Positions 1 through 24,313 of a stretch of DNA of 32,000 nt are shown here, in pieces; the first letter of the stretch is position 1, and every line of letters starts with the position of its first letter. Made by a program: the position numbers and the translations under genes. Source of the DNA: Candidatus Jordarchaeales archaeon. Lineage in GTDB: Archaea; Asgardarchaeota; Jordiarchaeia; Jordiarchaeales; Freyrarchaeaceae. The notes under the pieces were generated by a model. That model made no database searches. It was not told the origin of the DNA and saw nothing but the letters and a program-made list of their open reading frames with translations. The stretch lies in NCBI GenBank assembly GCA_038889235.1, contig JAWAHN010000001.1, positions 150,001-182,000 of the forward strand, in the 5' to 3' direction.

Positions 1-1
1 A

Positions 2-2812
2 ATAATTTATCAGACGTACACTGACACTACGCCAGTCAGCTTGGATGGGGATACATCCATAACCGTTGTGCTAGGCATAGTTAACCTCATATGCCAGGCG
101 GTATACCCGTGGAACAGCAGCATACCGTACATTAACGTTACGGTCATGAAGGAAGGACAACTTATCACTTCAGGAATAACTAACAGTACAGGATACGTAC
201 ACTTCCGCCTGCCACCAGGCACATACAATGTATTTCTCTACGAAGATGGCGTGCAGCGAGCAGTTAATGAGTCGGATTATGTCCAGTTAGATCTTTCAGA
301 AAGCAATACACCATACACCGCAATTCTCAACTGCACCTACTACCTCCAAGTTCCCTCACTCACAGGGACAGTCATATCCATTGTTAACGGCACATCGCTG
401 TCATTTACCTGGACACCGCACAAGGTTATGCTCATGGTCACATGGTATTATGAAGATGATAACGGGACTGACGTGAACCGCTCTGAGGATGAAAGTCGCT
501 ACTTGCAGTACAGGGTTATTAACGCTTCAAGAGTGGTTTTAGACTGGACGAATCTGACGCAGCATTATAGCAACGGCGGAATATATTATTTAGCTGATCT
601 TACTGGCCTTCTTTATGGTGGAGTGGTTTACACTGTCGAGTTTAGGGCTGGTGGCTCAGGGTTTGAGTCTGTTGCGGCAAGCGCACTCGTTCAGGTTAAT
701 CCTGTTATACTGAGTGATTCCAACGTTAATGTTTCGCGTCTGGGAACCTACTTCTGGAACCAGGAGGATATCCCAGTTTGGGTCCGTGTCTACGACGACT
801 ATAACGGGCTCCCAGTGGTTGGTGCCAACGTCACGTGGAGCGTTGAGGGGTTCGGCAGTTTCCGGCTAAACCACGCTGGGGACGGAAACTACACGGGAAT
901 CATACCTAAGGACCTCTTGCCTCAGGGAAGTTACATTGTGAGCTTCAGGGTGGAGTGCGCGAACTACACCGTTTACACGAAGGACAGACCTATAGTAATC
1001 GCTCCGAGGCCGATAAGCTTGGAGTTTAAGCCTACGTACGACGTCGTCTTTGGAGACAGCGTCATGTTTTACGTTTACTGTAAGGATAATCTTACGGGTG
1101 AGCCGTTGAGATCTGTGGCAAGCGTCTTCTACTCTATCGAAGGAACAATGTTCTCTGGCGTTCTTACAGACGAGGACGGGGATGGTAACTACACTGGCAC
1201 ATTTGATACTTCGCTTCTCCCCTCGGGTGTAAGCTACGGCATCACGGTTACCGTCAAATTAGAGAACTACGTTTCAGTAGAGAAGACAATATACTTGTTT
1301 GTTAAGCCTGTTCCAATGGTAATCCAGGATGTTCAGATTTCTAGGACGCACTGGAGGGACACGCTTAACTTGACTGTTACTGTTTGGGACGTGCATAATA
1401 GTGTGCCAGTTGTGGATGCGAGCGTCAGTTGCACCGTTACTAGGGATGGGGTTGTAGTGTTCGAGGCTCCGCTCGAAAGCCTGGGTAACGGAACTTACAT
1501 GCTTAGCGTCGATACGATAGGCATGCCTCCGGGCGAGTACACCGCGGTGTTCAGCGCCTCCAAGGAGGACTACTCTGCTCAGAATATGACGGTGAAGTTC
1601 AGCATACTGCATATTCCAATGGAAATTCAGAATGTTAATGTTACAGAGGCGCGCTGGAGGGAAAAGCTCAACTTGACGGTTACGGTTTGGGACACTCACA
1701 ATGGTGTCCCGGTTGAGGATGCGGTGGTCAGCTGTGTTATAATGAGGGATGGCGTGGTTGTGCGCGAGGTTCAGCTTGAGAGCTCGGGTGACGGAACCTA
1801 CAGGATTAGCATCGACACGACCAGCATGTCTGCGGGCAGATACACTGCTGTTCTCAAAGCATCCAAGGAAAACTACCTTGCCCAGCCTATGCAGGTGGAG
1901 TTCAGCATACTGCCTGCTTCAGCTACAGTTGCTCCGGTGGGCAACGTCGTCCTCGGAGGAGGCGCACCATACATGGTCCTGCTTGGAGGTTATGGTGAGG
2001 TTGAGAATGGTGTTCCCTTTGTTGTTCTTGTTTTTGAGTACAGGGATGCTTATGGTAACCCTGTTCCTGGAGCCACAGTCACAGCCAACGGCTTACCACT
2101 AACACACATCGGAGACGGACGGTACATGATGGTTGTTCCCACAGGCATGCCTTTCACCATGCCCATTGTGGTTTCGGCTTCGGCGGAGAACTATGAGTCG
2201 TCTCAGACATTTCAAGTGTTAACGGTCAGGGAGAGGAGCGTTGTTATACCTGGGCTTAATTTAAGGGTGCCGTTGACGATGTTCTTGGTGGCTTCGCTCG
2301 CGGTTGTTGCTCCGCCCGCCAGTATCGCGGGGTATGTTTATGTGAAGAGGGCGCGGACGCCACCTATAATAAGGCGCATAGACAAGTTGATTGAGGCTAT
2401 ACAGAAGGGTGCTAGGATTGAGGTTGGAAAGCCGCTGACGAGAGACGATGTGATCCTGTCCCTCCTCTGGGAGGAGATGGCGGTTGTCGGCGTTGAGCCC
2501 AGGATCGCTGTGATGCCTGTTGAAGTCGTGGACAAGCTGGTTCCGCTACTGGTCGAAAGCGGGCTAACCAAGGACGAAGCTGTCACTACTCTGAAGGAGC
2601 TTAGAGCTACCGCACCGGCTGAGAGAGAGCGGTTACTTGCATCTCTAGGAGTCCCACCCGACGTGAGCGCGGTGATACTTGGTGAGCTGGAGAAGCAGGA
2701 GGAAAAAGAGGGCGCAAAGAAGACAGCGAAGGGAAAGAAAAAAGCAGAAACGGAGGAAGGAGCAGGCGAGGGGCTCGAGGGGGACATTGAAGAGAAAATA
2801 GATGAGGAGTAG
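2..2812 (+). CDS. Large membrane-anchored surface glycoprotein with Ig-like repeats (5' partial)
   Basis: The frame is open from position 2 (IIYQTYTDTTPVS...), so the gene starts upstream of the window. It has five beta-rich ~100-aa units with G(D/N)G(N/T/R)Y motifs, many N-x-S/T sequons, a C-terminal TM helix (FLVASLAVVAPPASIAGYVYV), a basic stop-transfer segment KRARTPPIIRRIDKL and an acidic tail. Confidence 0.85.
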   Translation: MIYQTYTDTTPVSLDGDTSITVVLGIVNLICQAVYPWNSSIPYINVTVMKEGQLITSGITNSTGYVHFRLPPGTYNVFLYEDGVQRAVNESDYVQLDLSESNTPYTAILNCTYYLQVPSLTGTVISIVNGTSLSFTWTPHKVMLMVTWYYEDDNGTDVNRSEDESRYLQYRVINASRVVLDWTNLTQHYSNGGIYYLADLTGLLYGGVVYTVEFRAGGSGFESVAASALVQVNPVILSDSNVNVSRLGTYFWNQEDIPVWVRVYDDYNGLPVVGANVTWSVEGFGSFRLNHAGDGNYTGIIPKDLLPQGSYIVSFRVECANYTVYTKDRPIVIAPRPISLEFKPTYDVVFGDSVMFYVYCKDNLTGEPLRSVASVFYSIEGTMFSGVLTDEDGDGNYTGTFDTSLLPSGVSYGITVTVKLENYVSVEKTIYLFVKPVPMVIQDVQISRTHWRDTLNLTVTVWDVHNSVPVVDASVSCTVTRDGVVVFEAPLESLGNGTYMLSVDTIGMPPGEYTAVFSASKEDYSAQNMTVKFSILHIPMEIQNVNVTEARWREKLNLTVTVWDTHNGVPVEDAVVSCVIMRDGVVVREVQLESSGDGTYRISIDTTSMSAGRYTAVLKASKENYLAQPMQVEFSILPASATVAPVGNVVLGGGAPYMVLLGGYGEVENGVPFVVLVFEYRDAYGNPVPGATVTANGLPLTHIGDGRYMMVVPTGMPFTMPIVVSASAENYESSQTFQVLTVRERSVVIPGLNLRVPLTMFLVASLAVVAPPASIAGYVYVKRARTPPIIRRIDKLIEAIQKGARIEVGKPLTRDDVILSLLWEEMAVVGVEPRIAVMPVEVVDKLVPLLVESGLTKDEAVTTLKELRATAPAERERLLASLGVPPDVSAVILGELEKQEEKEGAKKTAKGKKKAETEEGAGEGLEGDIEEKIDEE
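1313..1918 (+). repeat. Two tandem 303-bp (101-aa) intragenic Ig-like domain repeats
   Basis: PMVIQDVQISRTHWRDTLNLTVTVWDVHN... starts at 1313 and PMEIQNVNVTEARWREKLNLTVTVWDTHN... starts at 1616, a period of 303 bp. Confidence 0.85.
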
Positions 2813-3193: not shown

Positions 3194-4432
3194 TCACGTT
3201 TTTGGTCTTTTATTCCAGTCTTTTTTCCAATCCCATACTTCGACGTTTTTGGGTGTTCTTTTGAGCACGTCTTCACTTGGGACGATCAGTATTTTTCTCG
3301 CTTCTCTGAACCTAGCTAGTTTTTCTTCGATTCTGTCCACTTCTTCGCCGTTGACGTTCTTCTTCCATTTTACTTCGGCCACGACCTTCACTTTCATGTG
3401 TTCTCTGAGCGCTATGTCTACTTCTAGGTCTGGCTTTGATATCTTGACTGGCTGCATGCTGAACGTTCTCGACAGCAGTTCCTCGAAAAACCACTCCATG
3501 TACACTGGCACCCTTTCGTTGAACAATTCCCCAACCCTCTGCTCGTCCATGTCTGCCTCGAAGAAGCCGTACTTCTCGTTTAGGTAGTATGCGATGTCCA
3601 GTATTGGGGAGGCGTGCCTGTACTGGAAGCTCCTCCTCTTTCTCCCCTCTATTGGTATGGCTTTGATCAACCCCATCTGGATGAGGTTTTTAATGTATTG
3701 AGAGATGAGGCCGGGGTTGTCCTTCTCGATTAGCCCCTTCGAGTAGAGGTAGCTTGATATTTCAGAGGAGTACCTTTTCCCGTTGGCTATGGCGCCCAGG
3801 ATGGCCGAGTATCTGGCTGTGAGTTCTATGTCCTCCTCTGCGAAAACTTCCCCCACTAAGTGGGGGGCGTAGACTCTCAGCGCCTCCTTTAACCTGAAAG
3901 GCGCCTCCTCCTTGTACCTTTCAACAAGCGGTGCAAGCCACGGCTCCTGAACGATGCAAGCAGCCTCAAACATCTCTCTTCCCTTTAAGCCGAGGGACCC
4001 GGCGAAGACCAAGGCGTCCCTCGGGTCGACCAGCGAGACTTGCCTTAGCTCGAAGAGGCCGAGAAGCGGGCTTCCCTTCCCAACGACCTCCTTGAAGTAA
4101 TGCATGGTTGACGTTACCAGTATAAGGTGTCCTACGCCGCCCAGAGCTTGAATAGTCGAGAGCACGGGCTCGTCTAAGCGGTGGAACTCGTCCACTACGA
4201 TCTTCTCTTCCTTAACAATGAGCGGTAGAACCCTCCTGAACTCGCTTTGCGAGTAGTCTTCCCCGCTGCAGATGTCGATGAGAACCTTGTTCCTCGAAAC
4301 CACAAAATATCTGTCATACTCCGCTCTCTCCCTCACATAAAAGGTTTTCCCGGTCTTTCTCCGCCCGTAGACCAGCAACCATTTGAAACCGCGAAGGACG
4401 GGGTCAAGCTCTCTTCTTGGTATAACAGCCAT
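3194..4432 (-). CDS. Archaeal ATPase (ATPase_2-type) with C-terminal DUF234/PD-(D/E)xK-like domain
   Basis: Walker A YGRRKTGKT, Walker B IVVDEFH, a winged-helix-like middle region and C-terminal EVDIAL...AEVKW. The start is placed at ATG 4432 (MAVIPRRE); ATG 4447 is an alternative. Confidence 0.85.
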   Translation of the reverse strand: MAVIPRRELDPVLRGFKWLLVYGRRKTGKTFYVRERAEYDRYFVVSRNKVLIDICSGEDYSQSEFRRVLPLIVKEEKIVVDEFHRLDEPVLSTIQALGGVGHLILVTSTMHYFKEVVGKGSPLLGLFELRQVSLVDPRDALVFAGSLGLKGREMFEAACIVQEPWLAPLVERYKEEAPFRLKEALRVYAPHLVGEVFAEEDIELTARYSAILGAIANGKRYSSEISSYLYSKGLIEKDNPGLISQYIKNLIQMGLIKAIPIEGRKRRSFQYRHASPILDIAYYLNEKYGFFEADMDEQRVGELFNERVPVYMEWFFEELLSRTFSMQPVKISKPDLEVDIALREHMKVKVVAEVKWKKNVNGEEVDRIEEKLARFREARKILIVPSEDVLKRTPKNVEVWDWKKDWNKRPKT

Positions 4433-4455
4433 TATAATAACCACCATTATAATAA
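4429..4455. repeat. 15-bp-period duplication of the ATPase translation-start region
   Basis: ccattataataa occurs at 4429-4440 and 4444-4455. On the minus strand this reads GGTGA-TTATTATA-ATG-GT-GG-TTATTATA-ATG. Confidence 0.7.
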
Positions 4456-4647
4456 TCACCGTTACAACACTACGAAGACATTTAAACCTAACGACGAAGA
4501 GCACCAAAGGAAGGAAGAAGCGGACGTTTTAATTGACCCGGGAAGTAGGGCTAAACGTGACCCATGAGTGTGGTGGAAAGTTGCTGGTAAACACGAAGGA
4601 GGGCTTTTGCACCCGGGGTATCCCGCCAACTGAGCTTCGCTCATTGC

Positions 4648-5475
4648 CTAGTGGTGGCTCCACCCTTTCTCCCTGGTGAACATTCTAGAGAACATTTTGT
4701 AGCAGATGGCTGGGAGCTCCACCCTTCCGTAGTTTTCTGCCGTTATGAACCGTATAACGTGGTTTATGAGGAAGGTTGCCAGTAGCTCGAGCTGGTAGCT
4801 TCCAACACTGGACAGGTTTCTGCCAGAGTAGGATACGTCAAGCACCTCTCCGTTATAGAGTGCTTCGACGAAAACTTGCGGGAAAAACTCCCTTTTCACT
4901 CTCCACTCGGAGCCACTCTTCAGCACCTCTGCACCCGTAAACCTTCCAAGCTTCTCAGAGTCCTCCGCCTTCAGCAGCCTGAAGGGCTCCCTTCTCTCCT
5001 CCAGTATTTTGACCATAAGACTAGACTTTCCACCGTAACCCTTGTCCACTGATTCTCGCCCAGTTAGCTTCGCCGCCAGGAGGTTTAAGGCGATACTTGT
5101 GAACGTAACCAAGTCCTCTCCGGGAACCCAGTAGGCTCTCTCGCCTGAGAACAGGAACTTCAGCTCGCCCTCAACGTCGCCGAACTCGTCCCCGTAGTAG
5201 AAGTAAAGCACGTGGACGTTGACCTCTGGAAAGAACTCGAGCGTGAAAGCCCAGTCCTCTCCCAGCCCAAGACTCTCAAATCTGCCGCCCAAAGCCTCGC
5301 AAACCACGCCGCGAACCCTCTCCAGCCCAAAATCCTTGAAGAGTGGAAACATCGCCGCACTAAACTCTTCGAGCTCCCTCTGGTGGGGGCTCCCGACAAC
5401 CCCGTCGATCTGCCCTACAACCAGAAACCTCGGCTTCACCAAACCCACCCTTTTCCACCCGGTCAAGTTGGACAT
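4648..5475 (-). CDS. DUF3786-like protein (two related halves)
   Basis: FFPEVNVHVLYFYYGDEFGDVEGELKFLFSGERAYWVPGEDL resembles the DUF3786 motif. A second, degenerate copy follows (FFPQVFVEALY...ELLATF). The start is placed at ATG 5475. Confidence 0.6.
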   Translation of the reverse strand: MSNLTGWKRVGLVKPRFLVVGQIDGVVGSPHQRELEEFSAAMFPLFKDFGLERVRGVVCEALGGRFESLGLGEDWAFTLEFFPEVNVHVLYFYYGDEFGDVEGELKFLFSGERAYWVPGEDLVTFTSIALNLLAAKLTGRESVDKGYGGKSSLMVKILEERREPFRLLKAEDSEKLGRFTGAEVLKSGSEWRVKREFFPQVFVEALYNGEVLDVSYSGRNLSSVGSYQLELLATFLINHVIRFITAENYGRVELPAICYKMFSRMFTREKGWSHH

Positions 5476-5547
5476 TAAAAGACGCGAGAATTTAAACTCT
5501 TTCCCAAAAAGCGAAAACAATACGAGCACAAAAATAGAGTGTGAAGA

Positions 5548-8409
5548 CTATGCTCCGCCAGTCTCTATCTTGCCCAGCTCATCTATGAGCCTTTTAAGCT
5601 CCTTTTCAAGAGCGCGCAGCTTTTTCCTCTCTTTGTCGGTGAGTTCACCCCTCTCCTCCTTCACCCTGAACTCCTCGATCTTGGACCTTATCTCGTTAAA
5701 CCTCGCCCTAACCTCCTCAATCTTACCCGTTATTATCAGCTCTCTCACCCGTATCCTCGAGAGCGTGTCATCTATACTCGCAATCCTCTGCTCAAGCGTC
5801 TCCTTCTCACGGCTCAACTCAGAGATACGCCTCTCATACTCCTCAACACTCAAAACCCTCTTATCGAGAAGCTCGCCAGCCTTCTTAGCCTCCTTCTCCA
5901 GGGAAGCGATAGCAGTCATCAAACGACTCTTCTCTTTAATCAACCCTCTCATCCTTGCCTCGTGAAGCTTGAGAAGCCTAGGATAGTTGAAAACGCTGTT
6001 AAAAGCACGCCTGAAAACATCCCTGAACTCTGAGACGTCACCACCCTCCCACTTTCTGAGGGCTGAGCCAGCCTCAGCCTCCACAAGCCTCAGAAACTCG
6101 GCGAGTCTACCTCTAAGCCACTCAACCTCAAGCTTGCCAACCTTTCCAGCGACGCAGACGACCTCCAAGAGCTCGCTTTCAGCCCTCACAAACGTTCCAA
6201 TGCGCGTCTCAAGCACGTTGAACCCTCCAAGCCTCATCTCCTCAGCAAAGCTCCTCACCGCAGACACGAAGCCCGACACAAGCGTAGCATCAACATCCAG
6301 CGAGAGAACGTCAAAGCTCCACAACGGAAGACCCGTCTCCCTATGCGTAACCAACACGTTCTCGATAGAAGAGAGAGCCTTAACAGGAGCCCGCCACCTC
6401 CTGTAAACCCTACCACCAGCAACACCACCAGCAACCACAACGGCAGCCGAAACACCCAGAAGAGCAAGAAGGCGTGAAAACTGAACGGACTGAGCAGATT
6501 GGGCCATGAAAGCCAAAACCTCAGCAACCACCTCTAGAGGCAACGGCGGCGGACTATAAGAAAGTTCAACAATCCTATATGTCTCCTCTATGTGACTCCC
6601 CCACACAACCATCTTAAACTTGTAGAAGCCCCCGCCAGGCAGAGTAAACTCCACAAAGTAAGACCCATTCCTATAGTTATCTATCTTATCCAGCCCAACT
6701 TCGCCTCCATCAACATAGAAGAGTCTTACTTCGGCATTTGTAACAGGGAAGCCAGTGTCGTTCCTCGAAACGTAAAACAGTATCCTTACACGGTCCGTGC
6801 TCTCAAGCCTATCTATCCTAATAGAGCATGGAGCCCTATCCGAAATACTGAAGGAGGACTGCTCGATCAAGCCAACCTCTAAGCCACACTCCACGAGAAG
6901 ACGCACCACATAGCTCCCAGGCTCGACGCTCACGTTAAACCAGCCAACATCAACTGTGCCGCCGCTGAAAACCGTCTGGTTTTCAAAGACTTTACCTCCA
7001 TCTTTGAGGACCGTTAAATTCGCTTTCCCGCTCAGTGTAGCAGTTAGCGCGCCCCTCACGGTCAAGTTGTCACCGACAACCGCACCACTAACATTGACCG
7101 GGCTGAAGCCCTCATACAGAGAGTAAATCGTTAAGAAGGAAAGAACGTTCGGCCCTCTACACTGTATTATCCACGTGCCATTCGCGGCCTCAAAAAGCAA
7201 CATCCCAGGGGCGTTAACCAGATAGACCCTTTCTTCCCCCGTATCACTATTCAGAGCGCCCGGAGTAATGTTCCACCAGTCAGCCGGTATCGACACGTTG
7301 ATGAACATACCTGAACCAATGTCAGGGAAACCGTGATCTTCTGTGGCGTCAATGGTAACATTCCATTTTACTTCGCTAATCGCAACTGCATAAGTAGTAG
7401 TGGCATTTATTTTTCTGTAAAACACAGAATTGGCCTTAGAAACGTTGAAATAGACAATGTCATTCCAACTTGAAGACGCATCGAAATGCACTATCCCATC
7501 TTGAGACTCAAATGGACCATTAATAGTACAATTTCCAACTCCTCTCTTCCCAGGAAAATCAAGGACACTAGCACCCTCAATTTTCAACCCAACTTCACTA
7601 GGGTACGCAGGACCATAACTAAGAAAAACGTTCATTAGAAAGTCTCCTGGTATACTTAGGCCTACCTCAAAAGATCCATCTGTTAAATTTATGCGTCCAG
7701 CGTAAGCTTCACCGTCGTTATATGGCTCTTCATCGTCAACATAAAACCATTCAGCCCATATTCCATTGCTCTCAAGAACTACGAAAAAAGTATTATTTAC
7801 TGTATTAGAAGCGTTCAGCATTGCATTGTTAAGAGAAAGGTTCAACCATCCCCTCTTAAACGTAGCATTACTATAAGAGATTTTGTTTGTTACATTTTTA
7901 TCAGGAACTAGACGATTCAATGTAGTATTCATTGTAGCATTCATAATATATACAAGCAAAGCTCCACTATATTGTACCTGAAGATAACAAGATACATTAT
8001 ATACTATGGTATTAATAGTTGATACAGGGAAAGACATAGCGAGTGTTGTGTAAGTAAATGGAATATTCGTAAAAAGAGTTACTCCCAATGTTCCCTTTCT
8101 GTCACCTTGCTTTATTGTTGCGTTTGGTGCTGTTATGTTTGTTATTGTTAGTGTTGTGTTTAGTATTCCCCAACCTTGCGGGCATGATATGTTGAAGCCG
8201 CTTTCGGTGTCTGCCTGACCTGGTGATGTGATATTTCCCGTTATTATTAGTGTGGCGTTAGTGTCTGCTCCCTGCCCTGTTATTGGGGTGTTTTTTGTTG
8301 CGGGTGTTGTTGTCATTGATATGGGTGTGATTATGTTTTGGTTTTGGATTATTATGGGGGTTAGGAGGATTAGGGTTAGTATTATTATTGATATTGTTTT
8401 TAGTTTCAC
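5548..8409 (-). CDS. Single-pass surface receptor-like glycoprotein: signal peptide, ~600-aa extracellular region, TM helix, cytoplasmic longin/roadblock-like domain and coiled coil
   Basis: GTG start with a GGAGGAGGG RBS and signal peptide MKLKTISIIILTLILL. It has more than 25 N-x-S/T sequons, TM LLALLGVSAAVVVAGGVAGG, then IENVLVTHRETGLPLWSF...DATLVSGFVSAVRSFAEE (Asgard-type longin-like signature) and an E/K-rich C-terminal coiled coil. Confidence 0.85.
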   Translation of the reverse strand: MKLKTISIIILTLILLTPIIIQNQNIITPISMTTTPATKNTPITGQGADTNATLIITGNITSPGQADTESGFNISCPQGWGILNTTLTITNITAPNATIKQGDRKGTLGVTLFTNIPFTYTTLAMSFPVSTINTIVYNVSCYLQVQYSGALLVYIMNATMNTTLNRLVPDKNVTNKISYSNATFKRGWLNLSLNNAMLNASNTVNNTFFVVLESNGIWAEWFYVDDEEPYNDGEAYAGRINLTDGSFEVGLSIPGDFLMNVFLSYGPAYPSEVGLKIEGASVLDFPGKRGVGNCTINGPFESQDGIVHFDASSSWNDIVYFNVSKANSVFYRKINATTTYAVAISEVKWNVTIDATEDHGFPDIGSGMFINVSIPADWWNITPGALNSDTGEERVYLVNAPGMLLFEAANGTWIIQCRGPNVLSFLTIYSLYEGFSPVNVSGAVVGDNLTVRGALTATLSGKANLTVLKDGGKVFENQTVFSGGTVDVGWFNVSVEPGSYVVRLLVECGLEVGLIEQSSFSISDRAPCSIRIDRLESTDRVRILFYVSRNDTGFPVTNAEVRLFYVDGGEVGLDKIDNYRNGSYFVEFTLPGGGFYKFKMVVWGSHIEETYRIVELSYSPPPLPLEVVAEVLAFMAQSAQSVQFSRLLALLGVSAAVVVAGGVAGGRVYRRWRAPVKALSSIENVLVTHRETGLPLWSFDVLSLDVDATLVSGFVSAVRSFAEEMRLGGFNVLETRIGTFVRAESELLEVVCVAGKVGKLEVEWLRGRLAEFLRLVEAEAGSALRKWEGGDVSEFRDVFRRAFNSVFNYPRLLKLHEARMRGLIKEKSRLMTAIASLEKEAKKAGELLDKRVLSVEEYERRISELSREKETLEQRIASIDDTLSRIRVRELIITGKIEEVRARFNEIRSKIEEFRVKEERGELTDKERKKLRALEKELKRLIDELGKIETGGA
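8110..8220. repeat. 111-bp perfect direct repeat, copy 1 (inside the intact receptor gene)
   Basis: Identical base for base to 11073-11183. It encodes GQADTESGFNISCPQGWGILNTTLTITNITAPNATIK on the minus strand. Confidence 0.95.
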
Positions 8410-8482
8410 AAGCCCTCCTCCTTTGAAGATTTCGCAATGATAATTTGTACAAAATATTCTCTTTCTCTTCTCTTATAAATAG
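8410..8482 (-). promoter_or_regulatory. Putative TATA box and RBS of the intact receptor gene
   Basis: The minus strand has TATTTATAAG at about 8472-8481 and GGAGGAGGG just upstream of the GTG at 8409. Confidence 0.45.
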
Positions 8483-8621
8483 TTAATTAGTTCTTTCTTT
8501 TTCTGGCTTTTGGTTAGTGTGTTTAGTTTTGTTTGTTACTGCGTGGTTGTCGTTTGTTTTTGTCGTTAGGTTGTGTGGTTGTTTGTTTTGGGTGGGTTTC
8601 GTTTTTGAACTTACTTTTTTG

Positions 8622-11385
8622 TTATTTTGGTGGTGTTTGTTTTCTTTTTGTTAGTTTAGCTTGTTTAAGTTCGTCTAGTTCTTTTTTGAGGGTTTTTAGC
8701 TCTTTTCTTGTTTTTTGGAGTTCTTCTCTTGTTTTTGCGTCGCTTATTATGGTGAGTTCTCTTATTTTTGTTCTTGTGAGTGTGCTGTCGATTATTGCTA
8801 GTCTTTGTTGGATGAGTTCTTTTTCGTGGCTCAGTTCTGGTGTTTCTTTGATTGCTTTTAGTGTTCTGAGTAAGTGTTCTTTTTCTTTTATAAGTTTTAG
8901 GATTTTTGTTTGTTGGATTCTGGTTATTTTTTGGGGGTCGAAGAGGGTGTTGAAGGAGTGGTCGAGGATTTCCCTGAATTCTTCTGTGTCTCCTCCTTTC
9001 CATTTTCCGAGTGCTGGTCCAGCTTCGGCTTCCACGAGCCTTACGAGTTCTCTGAACCTTCTTTTGACCCACTCGACCTCAAGTCTGCCAGCTGCTCCTG
9101 TGATGCACAGTGCTTCTATGAGTTCGCCTTCAACTCTGATGAATTTTCCGATCCCGGGTTTCTAGGGTGTTGAATCCTCCGATCTTCGTTTCTTCAGCGA
9201 AGCTTCTTACGGCTGAGATGAATCCTGAGACGAGTGCTTCGTCTATTTCTAGGGAGAGGACGTCGAAGCTCCAGAGTGGAAGACTGGTTTCCTTGTGGAA
9301 GATTAGTATGTTTTCTATGGAGCTTAATGCTCTGGTGGGTACCCTCAGCCTCTTGTAGGCTCTTCTGCCGCTGATTCCGCCGGCTATCGCAGCGATTAAT
9401 GCGGCTCCCAGGATGGAGAACATGCGTGAGCTTTGCATGAATTGCAGGAGCTGTAGTGTGACGAGCATGAGTTCCAGTAAGTGGTCAGGAATCGGTGAGG
9501 GAGTATACTCGTAATAATAGACGCTCACCGTTTTTTTGCGTGGTGGCTATGCGGTTCCCCGACAAGGTTATGGTGAAGTTATATGGCCCTTCGCTGGGCG
9601 GCTTGAAGGCTATGAGGGTAGGTTCCGTTCTCGTAGTCGGTTACAGCTGCCTCGATCCGGCTTCCGTTAACGTAGAACACGTTCACGCTGGCGCCTGCAA
9701 CTGGGAACCCGTATCGCTCCTTGAAACGTATATCTTAATCTTCACGACGCTTACGCTCTCAACGTGAACCAAACTTACGAAACAGGATGCTTGAGCTGAG
9801 ACGCTGAAGTTCTTCTCTAGAAGCCCGACTTCTAGGCCACAGTAAACTAGCAGGCGGAGCACGTAGTTTCCGGGGTCTGCCACGCTCCATTCGAACGCGA
9901 CGTTGCCTCCGCTGAAGCCTGCCTGGTTTGTGAAGACGACACCTCCCGACTCGTTAAGTACTGTTAGGTTTGCCGTGCCAGTTAGCGCGGAGCTAAGCGT
10001 GCCGTTTATGGTTAAGTTGTCCCTGACGACAGCTCCGCCCACCTCCACCGGGCTCCAACCTTTGTAGAGCGCGTAAACTTTGAGCTGGAAGAGGACGTTT
10101 GCCCCCCACACTGGATAACCCATGTGCCGTTTGTGGCCTCGAACAGCAACATTCCAGAATCGTTACGCAGGTATGGCGAGTTGGATATAATGTTGCCGTT
10201 GATGACGTTGAGCGCTTCACCCGTCAGGTTCCACCAGTCTGCGGGAATTGAGACATTGATAAACTTACCTGCTCCAGCCTCTGGGAACCCCTGGTCTCCC
10301 GTGGTTTCAACCGTAACGTTCCAATACGCAGACTGGTCGGGCATTACGGAGTAGACTGTTGCTGCGTTCACTTGCTTGTAGAATGTTGAGTCCGCCTGAG
10401 TAACGTTGAAGTATACTGTGCTCGTGTAGTTCGTTGAAGCATTAAAGTGCACGTACCCGTCCTGCGATGGAGGCAAACGAGCTGTTATCATACACTTACC
10501 ATTTCCCCGCTGTCCTGGGACATCTTCAACAGTGAAGAAAGCCACGCCATCTAACCCAACTTTTAAGTCAACCTCACTCGGATAAACAAGCCCCGGTTCG
10601 ACCACGACGCGCATCTTGAAATCTACAGGCATATAATTCCATGGTTTAGACGGAGACTTAATGTAGGCGTATCCGTCATTGTTGGAGTCGTCTTCCACGT
10701 ATACCAGTAGGCAACCTTATCCACGCTTCCTTTAACTAGGACGAAGAACGTCTTATCATAAGTGTTGCTGGAGTTTAGAATGACCGAGGAAAAAGAGAAG
10801 TTTAGCCATCCTTCACTACCGGGAACTGGCAAATTGGCTTGAGCTAATACCGCCGATCCGGGTTCCGGAAATCCCGATGACTCATTAAACGATGCATTCG
10901 CAACGTAAAGAGTAATCATCTTTGCAACACTAAGAGTAATAGAACTAGAAGGATTTATGTATATTGAGATTCGGTTGAGGTTCACTGTGTCTGTTGGAAT
11001 TCTGAAGGACATTGCTAATAAGGTGTTGACACTAATCTCTTGGGAGCTTGTGTTCCCAGGTCTTTCTCTTGTCTTTATTGTTGCGTTTGGTGCTGTTATG
11101 TTTGTTATTGTTAGTGTTGTGTTTAGTATTCCCCAACCTTGCGGGCATGATATGTTGAAGCCGCTTTCGGTGTCTGCCTGACCGGGGCTTGTACTATTAC
11201 CGGTTATTATTAGCGTGGCATTAATGTCTGCTTCCTGACCCATTATGGTTGCAGTGTTTTTAGTGGAAAGTGTTGTTGCCGTGTGAAAAGTTGTTGGGTT
11301 TGGTGTGAAGATGGTTTAATGAAAAGAGGGTTAGTGCCAGAGTTAGTGTTAGCGTTAAGATAAGAGATTTTTATGTCTTTTTCAT
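8622..11385 (-). pseudogene. Frameshifted paralog of the 5548-8409 receptor (true pseudogene or consensus error)
   Basis: ORF fragments 10623-11243, 10012-10698, 9683-10123, 9130-9528 and 8622-9035 align colinearly with the intact paralog. The frame is restored by 1-bp indels at about 11320, 10700, 10102-10107, 9706-9707, 9616-9618, 9531-9537 and 9153-9155. The ATG at 11385 opens a signal peptide that has a TAA at codon 5. Confidence 0.85.
11073..11183. repeat. 111-bp perfect direct repeat, copy 2 (inside the frameshifted paralog)
   Basis: Identical to 8110-8220. Confidence 0.95.
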
Positions 11386-11542
11386 TGCGATTTTTTCAAT
11401 AAGAGCGCCCCCCTCCAAGGTCCCGCGACAATCTAGAAAATAAATATCCAGTTTTATAAGTTTGTTAATTACACGTTGCTATTTTGGCTGTTAAGTAAGG
11501 GTTATTTGTCCCTAAGTTGATTTCTTGTTTTTGGTGGTTGTT

Positions 11543-12565
11543 TTGCAGTTGGAGATTGTTGAGCCTGGTGAGCTTCTCGATGTTGATGGTCGGCTGAGGG
11601 TGCGTGGCTGGGCTCGCCGCCCTATTCTTCGTTATGAGAGGGGTAGGGTTCGCGCTCCGTGGTGTAGGATAAAGGAGTGGGATTACTACTGTGTGCTCTG
11701 TTCAAGGTACGGTTTTGCTTTGACTTGCGCTGACCTAGGTTATTTGGGTTTGGTTTCGGCTGTTTGGCTTGACTTCGAGGAGGGGGGCTTTCACCAGGAG
11801 AGTAGGATGGTTCTTCTTCCTCGTGGTAGGATGGGGCTTCCAGAGAGCTCTGGGGAGGGTGATGTGGTTTATGAGGACGGGCGTGTGAGTTTGAGGTTTC
11901 TTAAAAGGGGGGTGGAGAGGAGACTGATTGTTGAGTGGCCGGGCTTCATGAACGGTGGTGGCTTGAGCGTTAATGTTGGGCTCAGCGAGGATCCAGGAGC
12001 AGACAGCATGGTGATTGTTGTTCCCTTCAAGAATCCGAGGCAATTCTACTATAATAGGAAGGTTAACTGTATGCCCGCTGAGGGTGTCGTCGTGGTGAAT
12101 GGTGAAGTGAAACAGTTCGGTGGGCGAGACTGCTTCGGTGTCCTTGACTGGGGTCGGGGCGTGTGGCCCTACAAGTGTGAGTGGTATTGGGGTTCCCTTT
12201 CGACTAGGCTTGAGGATGGAAGGGTTTTCGGGTTCAACATTGGTTACGGATTTGGGGACACGTCAGCGGCGACCGAGAACATCGTGTTCGTGGATGGAAG
12301 GGGGCATAAGCTTGACCAGGTGACGTTCCACTTCGACAGAAAGGATTACTTGAAGCCCTGGACTTTCACGAGCAACGACGGAAGATTCGAGATGACCATG
12401 GAACCCATACTTGACAGGTGCTCTAAAACGAACCTCCTGGTGCTCAAGAGTGTGCAGCACCAGGTTTTCGGAAAGTTCACGGGGCGAGTAATTCTGGACG
12501 ACGGCTCAGAAGTGAGGGTGAGGGACGCGGTGGGCTTTGCAGAGTACGTCGTAAACAGGTGGTGA
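11543..12565 (+). CDS. DUF2804 family protein
   Basis: RIKEWDYY, ADLGYLG, YYNRKVNCMPAEG, LDWGRGVWPY and FGFNIGYGFGDTSAATEN motifs. TTG start with a GGTGG RBS. Confidence 0.8.
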   Translation: MQLEIVEPGELLDVDGRLRVRGWARRPILRYERGRVRAPWCRIKEWDYYCVLCSRYGFALTCADLGYLGLVSAVWLDFEEGGFHQESRMVLLPRGRMGLPESSGEGDVVYEDGRVSLRFLKRGVERRLIVEWPGFMNGGGLSVNVGLSEDPGADSMVIVVPFKNPRQFYYNRKVNCMPAEGVVVVNGEVKQFGGRDCFGVLDWGRGVWPYKCEWYWGSLSTRLEDGRVFGFNIGYGFGDTSAATENIVFVDGRGHKLDQVTFHFDRKDYLKPWTFTSNDGRFEMTMEPILDRCSKTNLLVLKSVQHQVFGKFTGRVILDDGSEVRVRDAVGFAEYVVNRW

Positions 12566-23359: not shown

Positions 23360-24313
23360 TCAACTAGTTAGCTTGGGCGGCGTTATGTCCCCCGTGGCTT
23401 TGAGCACCCACACCCCCTTCTTTTTAGCTTCCTCGATAGCTTCGTAAGGTATCCAAGACGTGTAAATCAAGAGAATCTTTCTCGGCCTAATCTTTTCAGG
23501 GTACTTTCTTTCCAAGAATGCAGCTTTTCTGACAACTTCATCCACCAACTTAACCCCAGCCCTAACAGACACCTCACCTATAACGCACAAGCCATCAGAA
23601 ACACCGTAAATGTTTATTTCGCCATCAGGAAGCATGAGCGGCCCCACCTCAATGTCATAACCCATCTCACGCAGCCTCCACTTTACAACAGATCTAGCCT
23701 CCTCCTCTATGTCCAATGTAAGCTTGTCAAGAGTGGCTTCCATCCTAGTTAGGCGCTCGTCCATACGAAACTGAATCTCCTCTAATCTCTCAATACGCGC
23801 AAGCATCTTATTAAAGTCCTCCCTAAGACGCAACAATTCCTCTTCAAGCCTAGCCTGCCGCTCCTCAAGCCTAGCCTGGCTCTCGCTCAACCTAGCCAGA
23901 GCAGCCTCAAGCCTAGCCTGAGCCTCTTCAAGCCTAGCCTGCCGCTCCTCAAGCCTAGCCTGGCTCTCGCTCAACCTAGCCAGAGCAGCCTCAAGCCTAG
24001 CCTGAGCCTCTTCAAGCCTAGCCTGCCGCTCCTCAAGCCTAGCCTGGCTCTCGCTCAACCTAGCCAGAGCAGCCTCAAGCCTAGCCTGTCCCTCGCTTAG
24101 TTTGGTTAGGGCTTCTCTGAAAGAGACGTGTTCTTCGGCGAGTTTGGCCTGTGTTTTTTCGAGACTTTCTAGTCTTTCGAGTATTTTTATCTGAGTTTGG
24201 TGATGCTGATCTAGCCGTTTTACTATTTCGTCTAGCCCGAGGAGGCCTAGTACCGCATACCTGAACTCTTTGTCTTTTTCCAGTAAGATGAGGAACTCTT
24301 CTTTGACCCCCAA
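23360..24313 (-). CDS. Coiled-coil repeat protein with a C-terminal PD-(D/E)xK-like domain (DUF3782/DUF1626-like)
   Basis: N-terminal LLEKDKEFRYAVLGLLGL, heptad QARLEE repeats, and C-terminal EINIYG...CVIGEVS...LLIYTSW. Confidence 0.75.
   Translation of the reverse strand: MGVKEEFLILLEKDKEFRYAVLGLLGLDEIVKRLDQHHQTQIKILERLESLEKTQAKLAEEHVSFREALTKLSEGQARLEAALARLSESQARLEERQARLEEAQARLEAALARLSESQARLEERQARLEEAQARLEAALARLSESQARLEERQARLEEELLRLREDFNKMLARIERLEEIQFRMDERLTRMEATLDKLTLDIEEEARSVVKWRLREMGYDIEVGPLMLPDGEINIYGVSDGLCVIGEVSVRAGVKLVDEVVRKAAFLERKYPEKIRPRKILLIYTSWIPYEAIEEAKKKGVWVLKATGDITPPKLTS
23839..24088. repeat. Perfect 84-bp x ~3 in-frame tandem repeat built from 21-bp subunits
   Basis: Units start at 23841, 23925 and 24009. 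Each encodes the 28-aa QARLEAALARLSESQARLEERQARLEEA. Confidence 0.95.

Follow-up and report, generated by a model that had tools for sequence, protein, structure and literature searches.

In the tandem cluster of lipoprotein-like (lpl) genes of Staphylococcus aureus, a conserved segment inside each open reading frame (ORF) was proposed as a recombination site, with a conserved unit that consists of the 3' region of one gene, the spacer and the 5' region of the next, and with deletions, apparent conversions and shuffled variable regions as outcomes (Tsuru and Kobayashi 2008; PMC2568036). Here we describe a locus in a Candidatus Jordarchaeales archaeon for which this cluster appears to be the closest analogue: an intact surface-protein gene (gene A) and a decayed tandem paralog (pseudogene B) that share an exact segment of 111 base pairs (bp), which we call the anchor. 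The pair lies in a stretch of 32,000 nucleotides (nt) of contig JAWAHN010000001.1 (assembly GCA_038889235.1, positions 150,001 to 182,000), hereafter the window. Like the lpl cluster, the locus combines tandem surface-protein paralogs, a conserved nucleotide segment within the ORF, variable flanks and recombination at that segment (PMC2568036). Unlike it, the locus belongs to an Asgard archaeon and to an unrelated protein family, has two copies instead of many, of which one is always decayed, carries the segment near the N-terminus and not at the centre, and is hypervariable only after the anchor and only in A. The best explanation, to which we assign a probability of roughly 0.8, is that one conserved segment recombines between tandem paralogs, which would be ordinary homologous recombination at a surface-protein locus and not a proven switching system. 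This mechanism is ordinary and already known from bacterial tandem paralog clusters; it is the clarity of the case that is unusual, as a single 111-bp segment displays intragenomic conversion, a population-level deletion and sub-genic allele replacement.

An archaeal precedent is offered by Haloquadratum walsbyi, where variation of surface glycoproteins by homologous recombination has been read as lowering viral infection (PMC4535781). Its cell-wall island is similar to the A locus in that archaeal surface glycoprotein genes differ sharply between co-occurring lineages (PMC4535781). However, whole genes or islands are replaced in H. walsbyi, whereas the A locus exchanges a sub-genic module of ~265 amino acids (aa) between conserved flanks and additionally undergoes intragenomic tandem conversion. 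Full-text literature searches yielded no paper describing such a locus in Asgard archaea.

Silent-cassette systems such as Neisseria pilE/pilS, Borrelia vlsE/vls and the trypanosome VSG genes maintain archives of several to hundreds of promoterless cassettes and show silent-to-expressed conversion over the variable region, frequent switching, and dedicated cis elements or factors. In common with these systems, the A/B locus has an expressed surface gene beside a non-expressed homolog, conserved guide segments, and a variable exposed region that follows them; it differs in that an archive, a donor-to-expressed transfer of variable sequence and dedicated factors were not found.

Exchange at the 111-bp anchor

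The exact run shared by A and B is 111 bp long, is bounded by a mismatch at each end, and is located in frame near the 5' ends of both minus-strand paralogs, where it encodes the 37 residues GQADTESGFNISCPQGWGILNTTLTITNITAPNATIK. An earlier reading of the window from its letters alone (the sequence-only reading) had reported this identity over 37 codons and its abrupt end at the variable module; we could confirm both, as the A/B identity drops to ~45-55% from the first base on the gene 3' side of the anchor. A repeat search placed the anchor in a wider pair of 216 bp at 84% identity. Upon globally aligning A and B, we obtained ~45-60% nucleotide identity throughout, except for ~80% in the 93 nt preceding the anchor and 100% within it. 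The ~80% stretch reflects ordinary paralog similarity and groups by orthology. A chance origin of the anchor identity is excluded: 111 matches in 111 positions have a probability of ~1e-29 at the background identity of the paralogs, and still only of 3e-4 if an unconverted A/B pair with 93% identity is assumed. The further genomic copies that the sequence-only reading proposed to look for did not turn up, since BLAST of the 111-mer against the whole genome of 2.14 megabases (8 contigs) returned just these two.

Tandem B-A pairs beside the same DUF2804 gene were located in several other assemblies (L031/L032, L034/L035, L046 and L038), which indicates that A and B had already been duplicated before the species compared here diverged. 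Against this background, the anchor behaves differently from its surroundings. For 95 nt before the anchor and 270 nt after the module, A genes are 89-99% identical to each other and B genes 89-100%, compared with 63-80% between A and B; in the anchor, by contrast, the A and B copies of the window are 100% identical, and the B copy is only 94-95% identical to orthologous B genes. In a triplet test of window B versus neighbouring A versus ortholog, B was A-like at all 7 informative sites of the anchor and at 64 of 1132 elsewhere (Fisher p = 2.7e-9). Furthermore, a T at 8187/11150 is found in A, in B and in a hybrid gene of near-identical genomes (see below), while every other family member carries a C. 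The locus thus combines a tract of paralog-over-ortholog identity between orthologous flanks, an older duplication, and a genome-specific shared variant, a combination that argues for the anchor identity being a gene-conversion tract that is maintained, in concerted evolution, by recurrent short exchanges. The idea of a recent gene conversion is borne out by the segment identities and the triplet test, and over evolutionary time the segment does act as the recombination anchor that it had been suspected to be.

Exchange between the copies probably took place more than once. Exact A/B matches occur at the same place in other tandem pairs, with lengths of 95 bp (L031), 91 bp (L046) and 49 bp (L034), and each tandem pair has its own mix of A-like and B-like states with differing tract edges. 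The window anchor itself mixes B-like (TCAGGC) and A-like (G, GGT) states. Because of these mosaic states and of disagreeing outgroups, we assigned no direction to the conversion; an A-to-B direction, as read from the G/GGT sites, was dropped since L046 and the outgroups make the polarity ambiguous. In five clusters of family paralogs in the closed genome of a related genus, no islands of at least 85% nucleotide identity were found; only the A/B pair of the present genus shows the phenomenon. Two of the A copies carry frame-breaking indels exactly at the edges of their identity tracts, namely an added T at L031:13206 (5' edge) and a 5-nt AAAGT at L046:3100-3190 (3' edge), which may be scars of error-prone recombination.

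Table 1. Features of the tandem locus, in window coordinates
Feature	Position	Strand	Remarks
Gene A	5548..8409	-	Intact 953-codon ORF, 953 aa (ORF and translation)
Longin/roadblock-like cytosolic domain	6052..6366	-	~aa 682-786; beta-beta-alpha-beta-beta-beta-alpha in the model
Low-GC hypervariable module	7315..8109	-	Gene A aa 101-365; begins at first base 3' of anchor
Extra C in hybrid gene	7664	-	Splits the gene into 220-aa and 695-aa products; gene A of the window is intact there
Anchor copy 1	8110..8220	-	Gene A codons 64-100; exact match to 11073-11183
Pre-anchor segment of A	8221..8313	-	~80% identity to 11184-11276 of B
Absent unit, 2963 bp	8221..11183	-	B body, spacer and A 5' end; register within anchor not fixable
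Pseudogene B	8622..11385	-	Full-length A paralog, ~45-50% aa identity; ortholog of intact P0007
Anchor copy 2	11073..11183	-	Inside pseudogene B; state of neighbouring A at 7/7 informative sites

The frameshifted state of B, which the sequence-only reading had noticed, is substantiated by comparison with an intact ortholog. By tblastn, B matches A in five pieces that are spread over all three minus-strand frames with in-frame stops between them. Its ortholog P0007 is an intact protein of 931 aa (72-91% identity, depending on the piece), and comparison with the gene for this protein reveals nine 1-bp indels in B, most of them in short runs of 2-7 bases, and a TGA at codon 6. Long-read homopolymer errors as a source of these frameshifts were ruled out, because the assembly bears short-read de Bruijn signatures and because the first two indels of B are common to independent assemblies. 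B is accordingly a real pseudogene, a paralog that has decayed over its full length and has a 5' end of its own, and not a promoterless cassette. Classical homopolymer phase variation was ruled out as well, since the indels occur in runs of 2-7 bases only. Which of the paralogs survives varies by lineage, with A retained in the window and B in the relatives examined. In L031/L032, B is intact and A has at least two frameshifts; in L034/L035, B is intact and A is split into 546 and 437 aa; in L046, a Joint Genome Institute (JGI) contig with 91% identity to window positions 11264-7638, B is open and A is shifted by the 5-nt insertion at the 3' edge of the anchor; and in L038, fragments lie upstream of an intact A-like gene.

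A probable deletion allele and a hypervariable module

In two near-identical genomes, the interval between the anchors is missing. The protein P0001, which matches the last 695 residues of A except for a single substitution (99.86% identity), led to contigs of GCA_038820475.1 and GCA_038821275.1 (L029 and L030) whose flanks are 99.8% identical to the window. These contigs follow the window from 20597 down to 11068 and then continue directly at 8312. In a three-way alignment they have a single anchor, upstream of which they are B-like at nearly every site that differs between A and B, and downstream of which they are A-like. One repeat and the interval are gone, and the identity of the flanks switches inside the repeat, as seen in the assemblies alone; a deletion of 2963 bp between direct repeats is probably real. 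Loss of the ~2.96-kilobase interval was a check that had been set beforehand by the sequence-only reading, and the outcome is that exactly 2963 bp are absent, with the junction in the anchor. The resulting hybrid gene has the order B-5'/anchor/A-3' and inherits the broken 5' end of B, with a -1 and a +1 indel and a stop between them. This broken end, together with an extra C further downstream (Table 1), implies that no working copy is left in the deletion-type genomes.

The part of gene A that follows the anchor differs strongly between alleles. Among close relatives, module alleles are 39-55% identical at the protein level compared with 84-97% for their flanks, and all known module alleles share 39-61% identity with each other. 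The low guanine-plus-cytosine (GC) content that had been described for this module holds for gene A, where GC amounts to 32-39% in 7400-8100 versus 47-57% in the rest of the gene. The contrast is also seen between L031 and L034. Their B genes are 99-100% identical; in A, identity is 92-97% over the first 270 nt and 92-100% beyond nt 1170, whereas the sequence in between is 48-79% identical at the nucleotide and 51% at the protein level. Upon comparing the window with L034, we obtained a synonymous divergence (dS) of 1.40 for the A module versus 0.16-0.31 for the A flanks; the values for B and for the neighbouring genes DUF2804 and RACo were 0.155, 0.78 and 1.27, respectively. The module of B is conserved, at 92% aa identity. 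Between A and B modules the identity is 38-47%, and no resemblance of the A module to B or to any other sequence of the genome was found. Overall, the A module looks like a replaceable unit with its 5' breakpoint at the end of the anchor, and the mosaic alleles in relatives that the sequence-only reading had named as a check do occur, with the hypervariable module beginning where the anchor ends.

A comparable pattern was seen in a different genus (G004-like lineage), where the proteins P0006 and P0009 are 100% identical over residues 30-63, with 86% identity for the anchor, 44% for the module and 50% for the part that follows; this pair can be read as a further mosaic with its breakpoint at the anchor, at the protein level. 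As a separate observation, alignment of window positions 3200-11260 with L034 gave 85-97% identity for B and for A outside the module versus 75-83% for the adjacent corrinoid methyltransferase operon, with dS values of 0.15-0.3 versus 0.8-1.3 in the neighbours; the two genes downstream of A are 85-90% identical to L034. The lower dS of the surface-protein locus suggests a more recent exchange of the locus between species, and this is the pattern expected of a target of viruses or partners.

Mechanism and alternatives

We suggest that the anchor, as the only long run of near-identity between A and B, is used again and again by the general homologous-recombination machinery, which we infer to be of the RadA type. 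We observe three outcomes. Short non-reciprocal exchanges homogenise the anchor within each genome; unequal crossing-over between the direct copies deletes the 2963 bp, so that in the sister genomes the body of A is joined to the defunct 5' end of B; and the 3' edge of the anchor serves as the 5' breakpoint for the replacement of the compositionally foreign A module among strains. Diversifying or fluctuating selection on the surface protein, for example by viruses or partners, presumably drives both the turnover of the module and the repeated gene loss. What the genomes display directly, and what this mechanism is meant to explain, are the 111-bp identity and its concerted pattern, the alleles with the deletion or with mosaic modules, and the decay of one paralog to a pseudogene.

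Several points weigh against so simple an account. At residues that are conserved in five intact family members from different lineages, the codons were identical in 214 of 282 anchor pairs, compared with 132.5 expected from the same amino acids elsewhere in the gene, and in equally conserved peptides identical codons make up 31-54% elsewhere versus 74-80% in the anchor. Such an excess of synonymous conservation is not explained by simple opportunistic recombination alone; it might stem from homogenisation that recurs between lineages, from a constraint on codons, or from selection that keeps the copies recombinogenic. Neither the direction nor the number of conversion events can be fixed from the mosaic anchor. 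Both the tandem and the deletion form are known from assembled sequence, and a look-up of a protein from a B fragment matched only the window's own contig, such that the tandem form comes from one assembly in this species. The deletion form could in principle be a loop that was skipped by an assembler with k < 111, although the related assemblies deposited in this accession series did not skip their own 95-bp repeat but broke there.

The excess of identical anchor codons across the family would be accounted for by an alternative without any recombination, in which strong purifying selection acts on the nucleotides themselves, whether as an RNA element, as a site of DNA binding, or through a constraint on codons that concerns translation or glycosylation. 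Even genes that share 50-60% aa identity have a core of 49-60 nt that hardly varies. However, anchors differ at 5-8 sites between lineages but show few or no differences within a genome, and the T that A and B share with the hybrid occurs in no other family member; selection for one optimal sequence would not yield such genome-specific variants. Moreover, Rfam gave 0 matches at E <= 1 in window positions 5000-12000, no stable RNA fold was found in the anchor (z-score +0.29), and recombination at this place is evident from the junction of the deletion. We therefore regard purifying selection as a very improbable explanation. An assembly or polishing artefact, namely a graph collapse or a chimeric join of co-occurring strains, appears slightly less probable still. 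It draws on the source being a metagenome-assembled genome (MAG), on the tandem form of this species being known from this assembly alone, and on several exact repeats in the genome that are just longer than 127 bp. Against it, the contig ends overlap by 127 bp, as in a SPAdes-like short-read de Bruijn assembly with k = 127, and the anchor is shorter than this inferred k, so that each copy is tied to its own flanks by k-mers. In addition, the same 111-mer occurs in a single-copy context in independent assemblies, which also contain the first two frameshifts of B; all other assemblies differ by 8-11% from the 5' end of A and from the body of B, which were thus not borrowed from a known strain; and tandem pairs with long exact matches at the same place exist in three other lineages from other samples, including the JGI contig at 91%. 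The collapse that the sequence-only reading had named as its possible refutation is, on this evidence, unlikely.

More weight attaches to programmed variation, which is nevertheless unlikely in our view. Here the anchor would be a selected site for switching or rebuilding the ectodomain with the silent neighbour as donor, either in a pilE/pilS- or vlsE-like manner or by reversible deletion and re-integration. In an equally doubtful form of this idea, A and B would make up a two-gene device, where conversion, deletion and re-integration at the anchor switch the module, or leave none, on a longin-domain signalling tail and where the decayed neighbour is a reservoir; the excess synonymous conservation would then be the footprint of selection that keeps the copies recombinogenic. 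Besides that family-wide excess, the exact start of the variable module at the end of the anchor, the pairing of an intact with a broken copy in all tandem genomes seen, the deletion junction inside the anchor, and the frame-breaking indels at the tract edges of L031_A and L046_A all fit programmed variation. So does the A copy of L032, which runs into a B-type module after A-specific sites, and which would be a recombinant if real, but this evidence consists of the 112 nt at the very end of a contig, and the copy concerned is a pseudogene too.

The genome holds two anchors and two ectodomain copies, however, and no archive of cassettes was found in it. Each broken copy is an entire gene in decay that has a 5' region of its own, the B module occurs in no working A gene, and the A module alleles resemble neither B nor the rest of the genome; no transfer of a variable region into an expressed gene was found, and the conversion tracts are limited to the conserved anchor. 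What the deletion leaves behind is a non-functional gene. Among the neighbouring genes, neither a recombinase nor a reverse transcriptase was found, and no guanine-quadruplex (G4)-like initiator was noticed nearby. The family paralogs of the related genus are without identity islands, and the same sort of island joins unrelated surface-protein paralogs in this genome. The analogy with antigenic variation from silent donor cassettes that the sequence-only reading had drawn is thus unsupported: the locus is a real recombination hotspot and allele breakpoint, while a programmed silent-cassette system is not supported, and ordinary homologous recombination between the tandem paralogs stays the preferred explanation. 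A diversity-generating retroelement was considered separately and ruled out, since the repeats are identical, no reverse transcriptase lies among the neighbours, and module alleles have ~50% nucleotide identity.

The surface protein and its genomic surroundings

The product of gene A can be described as a Jordarchaeales-specific type-I membrane glycoprotein. From the N-terminus, it consists of a signal peptide, an ectodomain with 29 N-x-S/T sequons, a filamin-like Ig repeat, one transmembrane helix (aa 647-666), a cytosolic domain, and a long coiled coil. Its family comprises 78 representatives at E <= 1e-3 among 1.8 billion proteins, and the named homologs and the records with the conserved core come from MAGs of Candidatus Jordarchaeales, Jordarchaeum or Freyarchaeota. 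Pfam gave no domain match for gene A, searched whole and in three pieces, apart from coiled-coil noise in the tail. A membrane-proximal filamin/Ig-like repeat is indicated by a match of the family profile to gelation factor/filamin structures in the PDB (E = 4.9e-8, profile positions 557-625), and PF00630 is part of the precomputed annotation of the homologs P0006 and P0007.

For the N-terminal 400 residues we obtained a confident all-beta model, with a predicted local distance difference test (pLDDT) score of 90.7. A fold search with the ectodomain model identified no family and returned only weak beta-sandwich matches (TM-score by query <= 0.38) to phage baseplate proteins, birnavirus VP2, the lectin-like domain of Cwp84, and small hypothetical proteins. 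The anchor residues correspond to model positions 37-73, which form predicted beta strands at a pLDDT of 95-97, and they carry three N-glycosylation sequons. Many alignments with distant homologs start at about residue 64-72, i.e., at the anchor. Judging from the model, the anchor would encode the first and best-conserved beta strands of the ectodomain across the whole family.

For the cytosolic domain, with its predicted order of secondary-structure elements (Table 1), the best Foldseek matches were the eukaryotic longins AP sigma, zeta-COP and SRX, Fuzzy/Inturned, and Asgard Roadblock proteins (Prometheoarchaeum homodimers, PDB 9jq8 and 9jue), all of them weak (E ~3e-3 and above, TM-score by target 0.4-0.64). 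Unlike the Asgard and eukaryotic longin and roadblock proteins, the gene A product has this domain fused to a transmembrane helix, a glycosylated ectodomain and a long coiled coil. The protein would thus couple a glycosylated hypervariable ectodomain to a predicted longin/roadblock-like cytosolic domain. Considering the Jordarchaeales homologs and the receptor-like build that emerges from the profile match, the model and the Foldseek search, the earlier label of an Asgard surface receptor is supported as regards the organism and the build, and "receptor-like surface glycoprotein" is a fair description. The null alleles and the retention of a different paralog in each lineage indicate that the surface protein is dispensable. 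The locus is a candidate receptor for work on Asgard viruses and their hosts or on symbionts, and a natural marker for recombination tract lengths in an uncultured lineage.

Upstream, the locus is flanked by the DUF2804 gene, and downstream by genes for two conserved proteins of unknown function. The latter two (3194-4507 and 4648-5529, both minus strand; 437 aa and 293 aa) have only weak matches to AAA_14 and DUF3786; in relatives they always follow gene A, and they may work with it.

Other exact islands of identity occur in the same genome, about 10 in number and 98-168 bp in length. One of 153 bp, at window positions 1976-2128, is identical to C1:272317-272469 in inverted orientation at a distance of 120 kilobases. 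It lies inside the ORF 2-2812 (CarboxypepD_reg/Big_1 domains) and links two large surface-protein paralogs with 49-54% aa identity, with flanks that are 26-65% identical, and it looks like another ectopic conversion tract. Given such islands between other surface-protein paralogs, ectopic recombination looks like a general habit of this genome. Just downstream of the same ORF, a 155-bp exact repeat at 2909-3063 matches C1:487475-487629, again inverted; its flanks are unrelated on one side and 82% identical over 100 nt on the other. Compared with L034, the surface-protein gene in window positions 1-2812 is a mosaic in which blocks of 92-97% identity alternate with blocks of 75-79%.

Elsewhere in the window, 21-bp tandem repeats with at least ~11 units in register extend over 23765-24139 within the minus-strand ORF 23360-24313. 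In the same assembly, contigs C2 and C4 (the latter 22.7 kilobases long) each have the same 127-mer at both of their own ends and may be circular or circularisable paths.

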